DNA of 47,124 bases from a virus. Lineage: Duplodnaviria; Heunggongvirae; Uroviricota; Caudoviricetes. Below are positions 8,446-14,385 of the stretch, piece after piece; the first letter of the stretch is position 1; every line of letters starts with the position of its first letter. The notes beneath the pieces are model-generated. The model was not told where the DNA came from. It did not search any database and was given only the letters and a program-made list of their open reading frames with translations. The position numbers were made by a program, and so were the translations under genes. The stretch is taken from IMG/VR virus record IMGVR_UViG_2939521961_000002. One strand, 5' to 3'.

Positions 8446-8985
8446 ATGCAACCACTTCCATACCAACAGACTAGCGGATTTAGCCCGACTGCGGTGATAA
8501 ATCGTTCTCAAACAAAACAGGTGCCAGGCCACGAAAAAATCCGTGATGCCGTCCGCGCCTGGTCGGCTGTAGATAATCAGGATGTCGTTGCCACACTCAT
8601 TGTGAATGAGTATCGGGAGCAGGGCGGCGGCACCATCGATTTCCCTGATGATGTCAGCCGTACACGCCAGAAGCTGTTCCGCTTCCTCGATAACAAATTC
8701 GATTCTGAAAAATACCGAAATAACGTGCGTGAACTGACCCCGGCAATTCTGGCGGTACTACCGCTGGAATATCGCGGTTACCTGGTTGAGCAGGATAGCT
8801 TCATGGCTAGGTTGGCTGAAATGGAAAAGGAACTCAGTGAGGCAAAACAGGCTGTCATTCTCAACGCACCACGCCACCAGAAACTGAAGGAAATTAGTGA
8901 AGGTATTGTGTCGATGTTTCGTGTGGACCCAGAGCTGGCTGGTCCATTGATGGCGATGGTTACTACCATGCTGGGGGCGATATGA
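8446..8985 (+). CDS. Putative CII-like / YdaT-family early regulator
   Basis: 179 aa with strong RBS (AAGGAG); position equivalent to cII between cro and O; family assignment from weak recall only. Confidence 0.35.
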   Translation: MQPLPYQQTSGFSPTAVINRSQTKQVPGHEKIRDAVRAWSAVDNQDVVATLIVNEYREQGGGTIDFPDDVSRTRQKLFRFLDNKFDSEKYRNNVRELTPAILAVLPLEYRGYLVEQDSFMARLAEMEKELSEAKQAVILNAPRHQKLKEISEGIVSMFRVDPELAGPLMAMVTTMLGAI

Positions 8986-9071
8986 CAGGTTCAGAAATGG
9001 CGAAAGCCGGTCTGCTGGAACAGAACCGACTTTCAGGTGCAAATCGTAACACACTCATTGCGGGAGGAATT

Positions 9072-10001
9072 ATGGCAAACACTGCTGAGATATTCAATTT
9101 TCCAGTGCCGGATGCGGCACAAAAGGAGCCGCGCGTGGCAGATCTCGATGATGGTTATACGCGCATTGCAAATGAGTTGCTGGAAGCTGTAATGCTGGCC
9201 GGATTAACACAGCACCAGCTTCTGGTCTTCCTGGCTGTCATGCGCAAAACATATGGCTTTAATAAAAAACTGGACTGGGTGAGCAACGAGCAACTTTCCG
9301 AGTTGACCGGGATATTGCCGCACAAGTGTTCTGCTGCAAAAAGTGTTCTGGTAAAGCGTGGGATTTTTATTCAGAGCGGGCGGAATATCGGCATTAATAA
9401 TGTGGTCAGTGAATGGTCAACATTACCCGAATCAGGTAAGAAAAATAAAGTTTACCTGAAAGAGGTAAATTTACCTGAATCAGGTAAGAAAAGTTTACCC
9501 AAATCAGGTAAAGGCACTTACCCGAATCAGGTAAACACAAAAGACAAACTAACAAAAGACAATATAAAACCTTATTCGTCCGAGAATTCTGGCGAATCCT
9601 CTGACCTGCCAGAAAACGACCTTCCTGTGGTGAAAGCGGATGCTGCGATTCAGAGCGGCAGCAAGTGGGGGACAGCAGAAGACCTGACCGCCGCAGAGTG
9701 GATGTTTGACATGGTGAAGACCATCGCGCCATCAGCCAGAAAACCGAATTTTGCAGGGTGGGCTAACGATATCCGTCTGATGCGTGAACGTGATGGACGT
9801 AACCACCGCGACATGTGTGTACTGTTCCGCTGGGCCTGCCAGGACAACTTCTGGTCCGGTAACGTGCTGAGTCCGGCCAAACTCCGCGACAAGTGGACCC
9901 AGCTCGAAATCAACCGGAACAAGCAACAGGCTGGCGTGACAGTCGGCAAACCAAAACTCGACCTGACAAACACAGACTGGATTTACGGGGTGGATCTATG
10001 A
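9072..10001 (+). CDS. O: Replication initiator O
   Basis: Start at ATG after GGGAGG (MANTAEIFNFPVPD...); N-terminal similarity to lambda O (…VADLDDGY…RKTYG…NK…); iterons embedded mid-gene; stop overlaps P start. Confidence 0.85.
   Translation: MANTAEIFNFPVPDAAQKEPRVADLDDGYTRIANELLEAVMLAGLTQHQLLVFLAVMRKTYGFNKKLDWVSNEQLSELTGILPHKCSAAKSVLVKRGIFIQSGRNIGINNVVSEWSTLPESGKKNKVYLKEVNLPESGKKSLPKSGKGTYPNQVNTKDKLTKDNIKPYSSENSGESSDLPENDLPVVKADAAIQSGSKWGTAEDLTAAEWMFDMVKTIAPSARKPNFAGWANDIRLMRERDGRNHRDMCVLFRWACQDNFWSGNVLSPAKLRDKWTQLEINRNKQQAGVTVGKPKLDLTNTDWIYGVDL
9421..9537. repeat. Replication origin iterons (ori) within O
   Basis: Five ~19-bp palindromic repeats of form TTACC-N8-9-GGTAA (TTACCCGAATCAGGTAAG, TTTACCTGAAAGAGGTAAA, TTTACCTGAATCAGGTAAG, TTTACCCAAATCAGGTAAA, CTTACCCGAATCAGGTAAA) followed by an A-rich tract. 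Confidence 0.7.
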
Positions 10002-10699
10002 AAAACATCGCCGCACAGATGATTAACTTTGACCGTGAGCAGATGCGTCGGATCGCCAACAACATGCCGGAACAGTACGACGAAAAGCCGCAGGTACAGC
10101 AGGTAGCGCAGATAATCAACGGTGTATTCAGCCAGTTACTGGCAACTTTCCCGGCGAGCCTGGCTAATCGTGACCAGAACGAACTGAACGAAATCCGCCG
10201 CCAGTGGGTTCTGGCTTTCCGGGAAAACGGGATCACCACGATGGAACAGGTGAGCGCCGGAATGCGTGTTGCCCGTCGGCAGAATAGACCATTTCTGCCA
10301 TCACCCGGGCAGTTTGTTGCATGGTGCCGGGAAGAAGCATCCGTTAACGCCGGGCTGCCAAACGTCAGCGAGCTGGTTGATATGGTTTACGAGTATTGCC
10401 GGAAGCGTGGCCTGTATCCGGATGCAGAGTCTTATCCGTGGAAATCGAACGCGCATTACTGGTTGGTTACCAACCTGTACCAGAACATGCGGGCCAATGC
10501 GCTGACTGACGCGGAATTACGGCGCAAGGCTGCCGATGAACTGACCTGTATGACAGCGCGAATTAACCGTGGTGAGACGATACCTGAACCAGTAAAACAA
10601 CTTCCTGTTATGGGCGGTAGACCTCTAAATCGTGCACAGGCTCTGGCGAAGATCGCAGAAATCAAAGCTAAGTTTGGGCTGAAAGGAGCAAGTGTATGA
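9998..10699 (+). CDS. P: Replication protein P (DnaB helicase loader)
   Basis: 233 aa from ATG overlapping O stop; matches lambda P from memory (MKNIAAQMINFDREQMRRIANNMPEQYDEKPQVQQ...KFGLKGASV). Confidence 0.95.
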   Translation: MKNIAAQMINFDREQMRRIANNMPEQYDEKPQVQQVAQIINGVFSQLLATFPASLANRDQNELNEIRRQWVLAFRENGITTMEQVSAGMRVARRQNRPFLPSPGQFVAWCREEASVNAGLPNVSELVDMVYEYCRKRGLYPDAESYPWKSNAHYWLVTNLYQNMRANALTDAELRRKAADELTCMTARINRGETIPEPVKQLPVMGGRPLNRAQALAKIAEIKAKFGLKGASV

Positions 10700-10880
10700 C
10701 GGGCAAAGAAAGATTCTTCGTTACTTGAAGAAATACAGTGTTTATTGTTCTTTTGAGATGTTGCGAAAACAGGAATTACCACGGTAAACATTTTGTAGCT
10801 GACCCATGCATTGATGAAATATTGTGGGTATTTAATAGAGCATAATTATCAAGTTGCGTAAGATGTGGAGTAATGGTATG

Positions 10881-10898
10881 GGCGGTGTTAGCACCGCC
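10881..10898. terminator. Hairpin between P operon and reverse orphan gene
   Basis: GGCGGTG-TTAG-CACCGCC perfect 7-bp stem followed by TTTAATT on the plus strand; weak T-run. Confidence 0.3.
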
Positions 10899-10903
10899 TT
10901 TAA

Positions 10904-11251
10904 TTAAAGCTCAGAAAGCTGTGATAATATTTTTTCTGGAGTGGTTTCGTTGGAAATGCTAAATAATACAGCACCTTTGACTGATTCATCTCTCATTTCA
11001 ATTTCACATGAATTATGGTTGTATGAGATTGCATAATTTTTTAATGTTCTTTCGCTTTGCCACCACACCATATTTGCAAGACTTCCGTTATACGTTCTTA
11101 TCTCGATTGATCCGGGCAGGGCTTTCCAGATAACACCTCCTAGCAATGTAAGAGCGGCTGCACCAACATTTTTTGCATGATGGTTAGAACGTTCCATTAC
11201 CCCTTCAGCATAACGATGAAGAATCTCTATGTCAGTCGCTTTGATAGTCAT
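10904..11251 (-). CDS. Hypothetical orphan protein (115 aa) in AT-rich island
   Basis: Reverse-oriented relative to replication genes; about 30% GC on hand count; candidate extended -10 (TGcTATATT) about 50 nt upstream on the minus strand; no family recognised. Confidence 0.5.
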   Translation of the reverse strand: MTIKATDIEILHRYAEGVMERSNHHAKNVGAAALTLLGGVIWKALPGSIEIRTYNGSLANMVWWQSERTLKNYAISYNHNSCEIEMRDESVKGAVLFSISNETTPEKILSQLSEL

Positions 11252-11480
11252 GTTATTTCCATGTAATTGCTGTGTGAAACGTAGTGTTAGTTAGGTGTTA
11301 GCAGAATATAGCATCAAAGTCGAAACCGGTAGAAAAAATATTGGTGATTATTTCGCTGCATTTGGAACTGGAACAACAATGATTATTAGCATGATTGCTT
11401 TTTCCAGTCATAAGAATGAGTCGTGTTAATTTTTTCTATTCAATAGGAAATTATCATGTCATCAGAATATGAACAACTAC

Positions 11481-11572
11481 GGTGACTTCTGCGCTAAACG
11501 GGGACGTTTATGCGCACATACAATCCAAACTCTCTTCTCCCTCCACAGATGCAGAAATACACCTGCGATTTT
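11481..11572 (+). repeat. 92-bp direct repeat, copy 1 (5' part of a small ORF)
   Basis: GGTGACTTCTGCGCTAAACGGGGACGTTTATGCGCACATACAATC...CACCTGCGATTTT; about 5 mismatches with copy 2 at 13803..13894. Confidence 0.85.
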
Positions 11573-11650
11573 TTGCATTCGGTGTTTTTGGCAGCCAAGA
11601 ACAGGGAGTCTCTGTTTGTCTGGCGGCTAAAGGTGATATGGAAATCGTGA
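11510..11650 (+). CDS. Small ORF (46 aa) initiated inside repeat copy 1
   Basis: ATG 6 nt after [26 protein letters not shown]...; N-terminal 21 codons shared with the small ORF at 13832. Confidence 0.3.
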
Positions 11651-11729: not shown

Positions 11730-11759
11730 TTGACGACATTATTTATCCGGCGCTATATT
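11730..11759 (+). promoter_or_regulatory. Putative sigma70 promoter upstream of the Bro-N gene
   Basis: TTGACG (11730..11735), 17-18 nt spacer, CTATAT/TATATT (11753..11759). Confidence 0.4.
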
Positions 11760-11819
11760 CTGTGCGTTGCCGCAAAATCGGCACACGGGATTGGCGTCCC
11801 GGACATCAAAACGACGCAT

Positions 11820-11840
11820 AACCGCGTTCGCGGTTTTTTT
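11820..11840 (+). terminator. Hairpin plus T7 run in the leader (possible attenuator)
   Basis: AACCGC-GTTC-GCGGTT followed by TTTTTTT, about 55 nt downstream of the putative promoter and upstream of the Bro-N start. Confidence 0.35.
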
Positions 11841-12003
11841 ATGCGCAGTGCACGTCTACACAAAAATTATGGTGGGCTGTGTGAGGGCTTCTTCGGAAGC
11901 GCCGGATTTCGTTTTGACCGGTTACGCCAACCTTGCACAGTCCACCACCAGTCGATTGGCGTCGTCGGTGGTGATAGCTCAAATTCAAAACGAGATTATC
12001 GCT

Positions 12004-12612
12004 ATGGTCACTCAGCTCGCATTCCGCGATGTAAAATTCACTCCTATAAATCACAACAACCAGATCTGGTTTACCAGCAAAGAATTGGCGGCAGCATTAA
12101 AATATGCCAGCACCAAAGCAGTAACCGACATCTACAACAAAAATATTGATGAGTTTACTGACGGAATGTCTCAGGTCGTCGAATCAACGACCTCAGGAAA
12201 TTATCGTAAGAAGACTCGCATTTTCTCCCTCCGTGGCGCCCATCTGATCGCCATGTTCGCCCGCACTCCTGTGGCCAAAGAATTCCGCCGCTGGGTGCTG
12301 GATATTCTCGATCGAGAAATTCAACAATCCCCAATCACAAAACAATTCACTGATAACGAACTTTGCACACTTGCTTGGTTATGGCGGGCAAGTGACACAA
12401 TGTTAACCGCTTGCCAAAACGTCACTCCGCTTCTTCAGGTAGCAGAACACCGCGAAGCCGGTCGCTTCACTTCAATCGAACAAGAATATCCCCGGATACT
12501 CAATAAGGCACAGGCAATCCTTGCCAGAGAAACGGCACATGTAAAATTCCGGCCGTGGCAGGATGATAAGTGGAGTCGAGTATTGACGCATTTACGTTCT
12601 GAACGGCTGTAA
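12004..12612 (+). CDS. Bro-N domain protein (antirepressor-like)
   Basis: N-terminus MVTQLAFRDVKFTPINHNNQIWFTSKELAAALKYASTKAVTD...RIFSLRGAHLIAMFARTPVAKEFRRWVLDIL fits the Bro-N pattern; start uncertain (in-frame ORF extends to 11767). Confidence 0.6.
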   Translation: MVTQLAFRDVKFTPINHNNQIWFTSKELAAALKYASTKAVTDIYNKNIDEFTDGMSQVVESTTSGNYRKKTRIFSLRGAHLIAMFARTPVAKEFRRWVLDILDREIQQSPITKQFTDNELCTLAWLWRASDTMLTACQNVTPLLQVAEHREAGRFTSIEQEYPRILNKAQAILARETAHVKFRPWQDDKWSRVLTHLRSERL

Positions 12613-12911: not shown

Positions 12912-13328
12912 ATGAATAAAAACGACCTTGAAGCATTATCTGACACTAGGCTTAATGAGGCCAAATGCTTGCTTGATCATGGCTTTTTTCATGGTGCATA
13001 TTATCTTTGTGGGTATGCAGTTGAATGTGCATTGAAGGCCTGTATTGCCAAGTCATTTTTACAACATGAGTTTCCAAACAAAAAAGTCGTAAATGATTCA
13101 TATACTCATGATTTGTCGCAACTTCTCAAAATTGCCAACTTACATCAAATTTTGATTGCTGACGCAAAAAATGATGTTTCGTTGGAGATTAACTGGTCGG
13201 TCGTTAAAGACTGGAGCGAGCAATTTAGATACGACAATAACATAAGTAAAGCTATGGCCGAACAATTGTTTGATGCTGTAGGTGACCAAAATTCTGGAGT
13301 TTTGAAATGGGTAAAAGCACACTGGTAA
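12912..13328 (+). CDS. HEPN-like domain protein (138 aa)
   Basis: Helix GAYYLCGYAVECALKACIAK plus THDLSQLL and FRYDNN resemble conserved HEPN helices; about 32-37% GC; stop overlaps the next ORF. Confidence 0.5.
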   Translation: MNKNDLEALSDTRLNEAKCLLDHGFFHGAYYLCGYAVECALKACIAKSFLQHEFPNKKVVNDSYTHDLSQLLKIANLHQILIADAKNDVSLEINWSVVKDWSEQFRYDNNISKAMAEQLFDAVGDQNSGVLKWVKAHW

Positions 13329-13708
13329 TCGGCAGAGAGTTGACAAAAGATATGGAATTCTCAGGTCAATTTTTGTTAAAAAAACTCAAGTTACAGAATT
13401 TAACTATTGATGCTGCAATGTGGTTTTATTACCCAGATCTATCTTGGAGATATATTTTAGTTATCAGTGACTTCTCAGAACGTGGGCCGGCAGAAATATA
13501 TAGAAAAATCAGTGAGATAAATAGAAATAGCATATCAAAAAAGTATAAGCCGATACCATTAGAAGCAATTGAGGCTAAGGGGGATTCAGCTTTTGTTTAT
13601 AAAATGTTAAAAGGATTTGCTAGAGTCAACGATGGTAAAGTTCGCGTTTCTAATTCTATGGTAAATGGTTTAGAAATCGTTGACTGTCTGATCTATGAGT
13701 TAAAATAA
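13307..13708 (+). CDS. Hypothetical protein (133 aa) translationally coupled to the HEPN-like gene
   Basis: ATG 8 nt after GGAG, overlapping the upstream ORF by 22 nt; no nucleotidyltransferase GS/DxD motif seen; no family recognised. Confidence 0.5.
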   Translation: MGKSTLVIGRELTKDMEFSGQFLLKKLKLQNLTIDAAMWFYYPDLSWRYILVISDFSERGPAEIYRKISEINRNSISKKYKPIPLEAIEAKGDSAFVYKMLKGFARVNDGKVRVSNSMVNGLEIVDCLIYELK

Positions 13709-13802
13709 GAAATCTCTTGCTGGGTATCATTATTGTTTAAATGACTTTTGATTTTCAATAATCAACTTGTCATAATTAAGTCACCGGAGTTTGAACTCCT
13801 CC

Positions 13803-13894
13803 GGTGACTTCTGCGCTAAACGGGGACGTTTATGCGCACATACAATCTAAACTATCTTCTCCCGTCACAGATGCAGAAATGCACCTGCGATTTT
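13803..13894 (+). repeat. 92-bp direct repeat, copy 2 (5' part of the small ORF preceding ybcN/ninB)
   Basis: Matches 11481..11572 with about 5 mismatches; preceded by a 10-bp-stem hairpin whose 3' arm lies inside the repeat. Confidence 0.85.
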
Positions 13895-13933
13895 CTTTAT
13901 CCAGCGTTTGACCTCTGCGGAGGTGAAGCGTGA
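13832..13933 (+). CDS. Small ORF (33 aa) coupled to ybcN/ninB
   Basis: ATG after GGGGA; stop TGA overlaps the GTG start of the next gene (GTGA). Confidence 0.3.
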
Positions 13934-14385
13934 ACCTCCCACAAGACGGCATCAAACTGCATCGCGGTAACTTCACCGCTATCGGTCAGCAGCTCCAGCC
14001 TTATTTGGAAGACGGCAAGTGCTTTCGCATGGTGCTTAAACCGTGGCGCGAGAGACGCAGTCTTTCCCAGAATGCACTTAGCCACATGTGGTACAGCGAA
14101 ATCAGTGAATACCTTATCCGCAGGGGGAAATCGTTCGCTACCGCAGCATGGGTAAAAGATGCTCTCAAACACACATACCTCGGTTATGAAACCAAGGACC
14201 TGGTTGATGTCGTAACCGGTGAAATCACTACTATCCAGTCGTTACGCCATACCTCCGATCTTGATACCGGAGAGATGTATGTCTTCCTGTGTAAGGTTGA
14301 AGCCTGGGCGATGAATATTGGCTGCCACCTGACTATTCCGCAGAGCTGCGAGTTCCAGCTGCTGCGCGACAAGCAGGAGGCGTAA
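13930..14385 (+). CDS. ybcN: NinB-family protein (DLP12 YbcN-like)
   Basis: 151 aa, GTG start after [20 protein letters not shown] motif resembles the NinB S-L-x-Q-N region; position and size match DLP12 ybcN. Confidence 0.65.

Follow-up and report, generated by a model that had tools for sequence, protein, structure and literature searches.

We analysed a 47,124-nucleotide (nt) stretch of viral DNA (IMG/VR record IMGVR_UViG_2939521961_000002, Caudoviricetes), in the following called the window, with a focus on a 115-amino-acid (aa) open reading frame (ORF) behind the replication gene P. The window contains a lambda-like prophage with a cI-like S24 repressor, cro-/cII-like genes, O and P. The ORF was found exactly as an initial annotation, read from the letters without database searches, had described it: on the minus strand and alone between P and a repeat-bounded cassette, where it is the sole credible minus-strand gene. 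The perfect 7-bp hairpin noted just past its stop codon was present as well. The AT-rich island behind P, for which about 30% GC had been given, is real but less extreme in composition. Positions 10700..11480 have 36.6% GC and fall among the lowest 1.6% of equally sized segments; the ORF itself has 38.5% GC and about 30% at third codon positions, compared with a window mean of 52%. Rfam models matched no RNA family inside 10700..11480. All coordinates are collected in Table 1.

The position of the gene was analysed by comparison with related phages. Homology to lambda, 434 and phage 21 continues through P and ends at 10709, 13 nt into ren, so that a ten-codon ren remnant is left. The first five codons of this remnant are those of lambda Ren. 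On the right side, the sequence from 11426 onward corresponds to the segment preceding ninB in phage PhiR30_1. Between these junctions, an AT-rich filler of about 716 bp (10710..11425) holds the module in place of ren. In PhiR30_1 the interval from P to ninB contains ren, a small reverse ORF, an acyltransferase and a lipoprotein. Since lambda homology ends inside ren and PhiR30_1 carries other cargo, the P-to-ninB interval is therefore a cargo slot with the 115-aa gene as one occupant. Lambda Ren, which normally follows P, has this slot in common with the 115-aa gene, but the two sequences are unrelated and lie on opposite strands.

The initial annotation could not assign a family, which has been superseded by profile searches. 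The 115-aa protein matched Pfam PF18315 (VCH_CASS14) with 71.7 bits (gathering cut-off 26.7, E 5.7e-20), residues 12-104 being aligned on profile positions 2-92 of 97. It also matched PHROG 5959 (E 1e-80) and PDB entry 3IMO (E 1.3e-17), and it conforms to the two-layer alpha+beta sandwich fold of the latter. By these matches the product is a bona fide VCH_CASS14 member. The family is limited in size but broadly distributed: 297 clusters were counted at 90% identity, and a set at 50% identity had 572 representatives. Nearly all members are single-domain proteins of 109-120 aa. Rare fusions (P0213, P0220, P0234, P0192, P0126) have Lys/Ala/Pro-rich basic tails, an N-terminal Clp_N domain or a duplicated N-terminal region without assignment. 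Nucleic-acid binding was considered as a family trait from these fusion partners and dropped, given a family isoelectric point (pI) of about 6-7. Frataxin, YdhG and YjbR-type alpha-beta sandwiches share 6-14% sequence identity with the protein and differ in details of topology, which does not speak for a common function. PF18315 is known from prophages and metagenomic viral contigs, but not from sequenced phage isolates. In literature searches with the names of the family, the accession, PHROG and InterPro, the 2013 structure paper was the only result, and searches on lambdoid nin-region morons and defence returned nothing concerning the 115-aa gene.

3IMO is the structure of Vch_CASS14, the founding PF18315 member, which is encoded by a Vibrio cholerae integron cassette (PMC3548836). 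The protein is a homodimeric alpha+beta sandwich with a hydrophobic pocket about 15 A deep, occupied by a linear aliphatic molecule, with acetate at a polar mouth of Arg21, Asn60 and Tyr14 (PMC3548836). Evidence for a homodimer in solution comes from size exclusion and concerns Vch_CASS14 only (PMC3548836). We mapped the 20 pocket-lining residues listed in that paper. In the Escherichia coli protein 12 of the 20 are identical and 8 conservatively changed; R21, N60 and Y14 are among the identical ones and are invariant in an alignment of 34 diverse family members. Residues H12, H24, H25, N78, H79, E85 and R87 are near-invariant in the same alignment. The 115-aa protein belongs to the same length class as Vch_CASS14 and keeps its pocket-lining and mouth residues, while it differs by the conservative changes and by a 2-residue insertion in a beta turn. 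3IMO also has a strongly basic sheet face, whereas the 115-aa protein has a pI of about 6, so that the basic face is not evidently a family trait. Unlike Vch_CASS14, the gene is reverse-oriented in a lambdoid prophage instead of being an attC cassette: it lies between P and ninB with no integron context, although attC sites were not formally searched.

Such a pocket would also suit a factor of lysogenic conversion or host physiology apart from phage conflict, namely a small protein that carries or senses a fatty-acid-like or signalling lipid and thereby changes the metabolism or signalling of the host. The bound aliphatic ligand and acetate of 3IMO (PMC3548836), the conservation of the pocket in the E. 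coli protein and one metagenomic locus with acyl-CoA synthetase, enoyl-CoA hydratase and lipase neighbours are in line with this, and integron cassettes and prophage morons often bring adaptive genes. However, this lipid-related context was seen in only one of more than 40 loci, the neighbours being mostly defence or mobility genes, and the 3IMO ligand may be an artefact of crystallisation or expression. We regard this explanation as unlikely.

Comparison of the enterobacterial homologues showed saturated synonymous sites (pS 0.70-0.85) and a pN of 0.15-0.24. Where it could be calculated, dN/dS was 0.06-0.16. These values indicate that the 115-aa gene is under strong purifying selection. Of 5426 complete E. 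coli genomes, 181 carried one full-length copy with at least 99% identity, among them O26, O103, O111 and O157 strains as well as animal and environmental isolates. In every carrier, the gene was part of one and the same block made up of O, P, the module and the c4/ant region, with a variable HEPN pair downstream. The protein is annotated as 'hypothetical protein' and is found in a DLP12-like prophage of O26:H11 strain 11368. A decaying, functionless passenger in a defective prophage would agree with the reduction of the neighbouring ren and theta-like genes to stubs and with the absence of the gene from sequenced free phages. This reading is already disfavoured and appears extremely unlikely to us, because the frame is intact in 181/181 carrier genomes, purifying selection is strong across genera, and pocket and core residues are conserved. 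Similarly, the non-coding alternative that the initial annotation had allowed for gave way to a real gene, as indicated by the Pfam match, the PDB homologue, the purifying selection and the intact frames. On this comparative evidence, the ORF is an authentic accessory gene of a lambda-like E. coli prophage and is maintained by selection.

Homologues with 63-78% identity were found in lambdoid or Rac-like prophages of Citrobacter (L002-L005), Klebsiella (L034) and Enterobacter (L035, L036), in a metagenomic enterobacterial prophage (L061) and in IMG/VR contigs (L055-L058). All of them run antiparallel to the flanking operon, with the replication genes on one side and ninG/rusA/Q on the other. 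In two distant viral contigs (L059, L060; 49% identity) the homologue is a lone antiparallel gene adjoining a C5 methylase, and six IMG/VR contigs in all show a solitary antiparallel copy. Thus, comparison with the equivalent position in related prophages, as proposed in the initial annotation, revealed that the solitary antiparallel copy recurs in the nin region. In related prophages a divergent gene for a DNA polymerase III theta-like protein (HOT, PF06440) lies upstream, head-to-head with the VCH_CASS14 gene, and the two start codons are 39-55 nt apart. In Klebsiella L034 and in L061 this theta-like gene carries a frameshift, and only an out-of-frame stub of its 5' end is left in the window. 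From the divergent arrangement we conclude that the copies in enterobacterial phages go back to a single ancestral arrangement that was spread by mosaic exchange. Apart from this pairing, DnaE2 is encoded immediately upstream in three nearly identical alphaproteobacterial loci (L014, L015, L026).

The region in front of the gene contains the candidate extended -10 that had been annotated about 50 nt upstream of the ATG. The motif is present, with its hexamer 54-59 nt upstream, and a candidate transcription start is predicted near 11298, giving a 5' untranslated region of about 47 nt. A consensus promoter scan called neither the proposed promoter nor the -35 candidate. At the position of the Shine-Dalgarno-like GGAA, relatives have AAGGA or AGGGGA. 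The sequence TGcTATATT was also found in Citrobacter, and TGCTATGYT in Klebsiella, Enterobacter, L055 and L057, so that TTTG(A/C)TGCTAT(A/G)(T/C)T is common to all of these and E. coli. In the relatives, this motif overlaps the first codons (MSEINIASK...) of the theta-like gene. The shared TTTGATGCTAT motif had been considered as independent evidence for promoter conservation and was withdrawn because of this overlap. It is suggestive, but not proof, that the recombination by which E. coli lost the theta-like gene spared exactly the stretch that forms a near-consensus extended -10.

Behind the stop codon, the hairpin has a free energy of -13.6 kcal/mol (z = -3.6 against shuffled sequences). 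A weak T-rich tail, TTTAATT, is found on the plus strand, opposite to the gene. A terminator scan did not call the hairpin on either strand, and neither strand has a canonical U-tract. By these features, the hairpin is not a canonical intrinsic terminator for the 115-aa gene. It could mark the 3' end of a transcript, contribute to transcript stability or weakly terminate rightward transcription in the pR direction. Stem-loops at the same position but with different stems (GGCGGTG, GCGGCA, GGCGGC, CAGCGG and others) were observed in Citrobacter, Klebsiella, Enterobacter, L055, L057, L058 and L061, and in no lineage were they followed by a U-tract on the strand of the gene. As the stems differ, this recurrence points to an RNA structure that is conserved and moves together with the gene. 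The initial annotation had credited the gene with signals of its own. A candidate extended -10 and a recurring stem-loop are indeed seen, but the stem-loop lacks the U-tract and was not called by the scan.

The stem-loop could instead serve mainly the phage, as a weak terminator or pause site after P on pR transcripts, analogous to lambda tR2; the -10 motif would then be an accident of the theta-gene remnant, and the gene would use other signals or be poorly expressed. In this respect, the TTTAATT tail follows the stem on the plus strand, an extra G-U pair extends the stem to 8 bp (-19.5 kcal/mol in context), T-rich sequence is found on the operon strand in relatives too, and the -10 motif coincides with the theta-like stub. 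However, only 4 U occur in the first 8 nt, hence the negative scan, and the stem-loop travels across phage backbones with the gene and not with P. Furthermore, purifying selection shows that the gene is used and so expressed somehow. We consider this explanation somewhat unlikely.

We compared the unit with the morons of lambdoid phages as described by Hendrix and Juhala (lambda bor and lom; HK97 morons). Like these, it is an extra unit whose flanking genes are direct neighbours in relatives or enclose other cargo there, with atypical base composition, a promoter-like site upstream, a stem-loop downstream and an orientation opposite to the operon. It differs in that it has no sequence relationship to any characterised moron, that its stem-loop is without a U-tract and that its expression in the lysogen is putative. 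Insertion between genes that are differently filled in relatives and deviant base composition were both found. Of the moron hallmarks in the initial annotation, the antiparallel orientation and the atypical composition were confirmed; the gene also sits in a slot that is filled by ren in lambda and by other genes in PhiR30_1. As far as sequence can show, the 115-aa gene is supported as a moron that encodes a known domain in a known kind of arrangement.

Relatives outside prophages were inspected for their immediate neighbours, which were in part assigned by PADLOC matches. In Serratia marcescens the gene lies 35 bp after a gene for a 582-aa AIPR protein on the same strand (AbiU, E 6e-53), in Franconibacter it adjoins dndBCDE and an Hcp gene, and on an Azospirillum plasmid it is located directly upstream of a complete Pycsar pair (PycTIR, PycC). 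Across 22 alphaproteobacterial loci, immediate neighbours included DruA (E 8e-291), GmrSD-like HEC-05, an HNH nuclease, a type II/IIG methyltransferase fusion, PDC-S31/DUF2971, ArdC, integrases and DnaE2. A role in conflict is proposed because PF18315 members are carried by temperate phages, by plasmids and in integron cassettes and have known defence genes as direct neighbours. With known defence-island residents the relatives share neighbours such as AbiU, Pycsar, Druantia DruA, GmrSD-like and restriction-modification genes. By analogy only, the 115-aa gene resembles single-gene exclusion or defence factors of prophages in being small, autonomously placed and prophage-borne. Unlike known defence factors, its product has neither a PADLOC match nor a recognisable effector domain.

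In 15 of the 22 alphaproteobacterial loci, a gene of about 165 codons starts at or overlaps the stop codon of the VCH_CASS14 gene, and in at least 6 loci a Fic-domain gene follows. The Fic protein that often comes next after the partner has 229 aa and is PDC-S04/SoFic-like in PADLOC. VCH_CASS14 with the 165-aa partner, with or without Fic, is a candidate for a new operon type. The partner had no Pfam, PADLOC, NCBIfam or PDB sequence match, and a fold search did not separate HEPN from generic helical bundles. By hhalign, it showed no relation to the HEPN pair of the window or to AIPR, and neither the window nor the enterobacterial loci gave a match to its profile. The interval between the 115-aa ORF and P leaves no room for a second gene.

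This coupling raises the question whether the family is primarily the first gene of a toxin-antitoxin-like or defence operon. In that case the prophage copy, as an orphan antitoxin or regulator, would work on its own as a neutraliser or decoy and shield the phage or lysogen against toxins of the partner type. The partner in 15/22 loci, the Fic gene in at least six and AbiU 35 bp ahead of the Serratia gene would fit such a role. Against it stand the lack of a partner homologue in the window and in any enterobacterial locus, the failure of hhalign to find anything against the HEPN protein of the window or AIPR, and the lack of a DNA-binding domain in the family, unlike typical antitoxins. Also, the 115-aa gene has no adjacent cognate toxin in the same operon, as a type II toxin-antitoxin system would. 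A role as orphan antitoxin or regulator has, in our estimate, a low probability.

Several further elements surround the gene. Directly right of it, window positions 11730-12612 resemble the antirepressor control region of P1/P7 immI; a mechanically listed 281-aa TTG ORF overstates the extent of the Ant-type gene there. An overlapping, AT-rich gene pair (35% GC) at 12912-13708 could encode a HEPN toxin-antitoxin or defence pair; L045, an otherwise collinear viral contig, lacks it. The unit of the direct repeat around the cassette is the segment that precedes ninB in PhiR30_1, which suggests that the c4/ant/HEPN cassette entered by recombination inside this segment. From 13930-14385 onward, the window matches DLP12-type genes (also seen in L001), namely ybcN/ninB-like, ninE, ybcO, rusA, ylcG and quuD, followed by an ompC/nmpC-like porin gene. 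Because of this match in the late-early region, the prophage is a DLP12-like lambdoid mosaic.

Table 1. Positions of the 115-aa gene, its surroundings in the window and associated genes at related loci
Feature	Position	Strand	Remarks
O	8982..10001		
P	9998..10699		PF06992
ren remnant	10696..10728	plus	10 codons (MTGKERFFVT, then stop); overlaps P stop codon (ATGA)
Stem-loop	10881..10898		Perfect 7-bp GC-rich stem, 4-nt loop (GGCGGTG-4 nt-CACCGCC); starts 5 nt past stop codon of the 115-aa ORF
115-aa ORF, WP_000152742.1	10904..11251	minus	ATG start, TAA stop; single VCH_CASS14 domain (PF18315); PHROG 5959
Shine-Dalgarno-like GGAA	11257..11260	minus	6-9 nt before ATG
Candidate extended -10, TGcTATATT	11305..11313	minus	Read from sequence
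theta-like 5'-end stub, CTTTGATGCTAT	11308..11319	minus	12 nt, out of frame; right limit of DNA common with relatives
Weak -35 candidate, TCTACC (3/6)	11328..11333	minus	17-nt spacer; predicted by sequence reading
Direct repeat	11426-11587 and 13748-13909		162 nt, 81% identity; brackets c4/ant/HEPN cassette
Sigma-70-like promoter	11730-11759		TTGACG, 18 nt, TATATT
c4-a1b1 target	11753-11805		Rfam match below gathering
isrK	11768-11840		Rfam match, 64 bits
C4 antisense RNA	11865-11952		Rfam match, 82.5 bits
Ant-type gene	12004..12612		RefSeq annotation; Bro-N and P22_AR_C domains
HEPN-domain protein, 138 aa	in 12912-13708		First of pair; PHROG 5737; weak PADLOC PDC-M28A
133-aa protein without family	in 12912-13708		Second of pair; PHROG 5760
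theta-like gene (HOT, PF06440)	L035 5697-5945; L037 5716-5868; L055-L057		Upstream of VCH_CASS14 homologue
~165-aa partner family (151 clusters)	L016-L018, L020-L023, L025-L029, L040 (e.g. L017 6346-6846; L020 6898-7587)		Translationally coupled downstream of VCH_CASS14 gene

Taken as a whole, the data are probably best explained by a self-contained prophage moron that is expressed in the lysogen and encodes a pocket-binding PF18315 protein with a role in conflict. A segment of about 440 bp would comprise the leftward promoter, the 115-aa gene and the stem-loop after its stop codon. Transcription would start from the own extended -10 while cI silences pR, that is, in the lysogen. During lytic growth, convergent N-antiterminated transcription from pR would oppose the gene. 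The protein would be a cytoplasmic homodimer that binds a small molecule, elongated and amphipathic, or a moiety of this kind on a partner protein, and not a conventional enzyme. Its role in conflicts between mobile elements or phages might be exclusion, defence or the modulation of defence.

A number of observations weigh against this explanation. The pattern TGNTATAWT occurs twice in the 47-kb window with 1.9 occurrences expected by chance, so the motif alone is not significant. Since it overlaps the coding start of the theta-like gene in relatives, its conservation is confounded and can be explained by the coding sequence of the neighbour or by shared descent. AT-rich islands in E. coli are commonly silenced by H-NS, so that expression in the lysogen is not assured. 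No U-run follows the hairpin on the strand of the gene (CAUACCAUU). The shared orientation of the enterobacterial phage copies does not, by the descent proposed above, represent many independent insertions. Searches with the 115-aa protein gave no match in NCBIfam, none of the families in PADLOC-DB 2.0 (5027 models) at E up to 1, no tblastn match in 50,697 sequenced phage records and nothing in BFVD with Foldseek at E up to 1e-3. The linear aliphatic ligand in 3IMO was never identified (PMC3548836). Finally, the conflict role is drawn from neighbourhood alone, as guilt by association without a background control, and is a reasonable but unproven candidate.

A wider and rather unlikely generalisation is that PF18315 represents an unrecognised class of small ligand-binding players in conflicts of phages and mobile elements, which exists in two forms. 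The stand-alone form, which these enterohaemorrhagic E. coli prophages carry, would be expressed in the lysogen as an exclusion factor, or would sense or soak up a lipid-like molecule. In alphaproteobacteria, the operon with the 165-aa helical-bundle protein and, in some cases, Fic would amount to a new defence or toxin-antitoxin system of several components, in which VCH_CASS14 is the regulatory or neutralising subunit.

The observations that are new here, namely a recurrent location in prophages, neighbouring defence genes and a conserved operon with the partner, establish no function. If no phenotype is found, the 115-aa gene stays an ordinary moron without assigned function. Still, a prophage lineage in 181 complete E. 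coli genomes, including O26, O103, O111 and O157 enterohaemorrhagic strains, has this gene fixed while it is called 'hypothetical'. The link to PF18315 supplies a solved structural homologue with a defined pocket, and the AbiU, Pycsar, Druantia, GmrSD-like, restriction-modification and Dnd genes beside the relatives make the gene a cheap candidate for a small single-gene function in exclusion or modulation. Beyond the prophage, the conserved, unannotated 165-aa partner family, with or without Fic, could define a new operon type.
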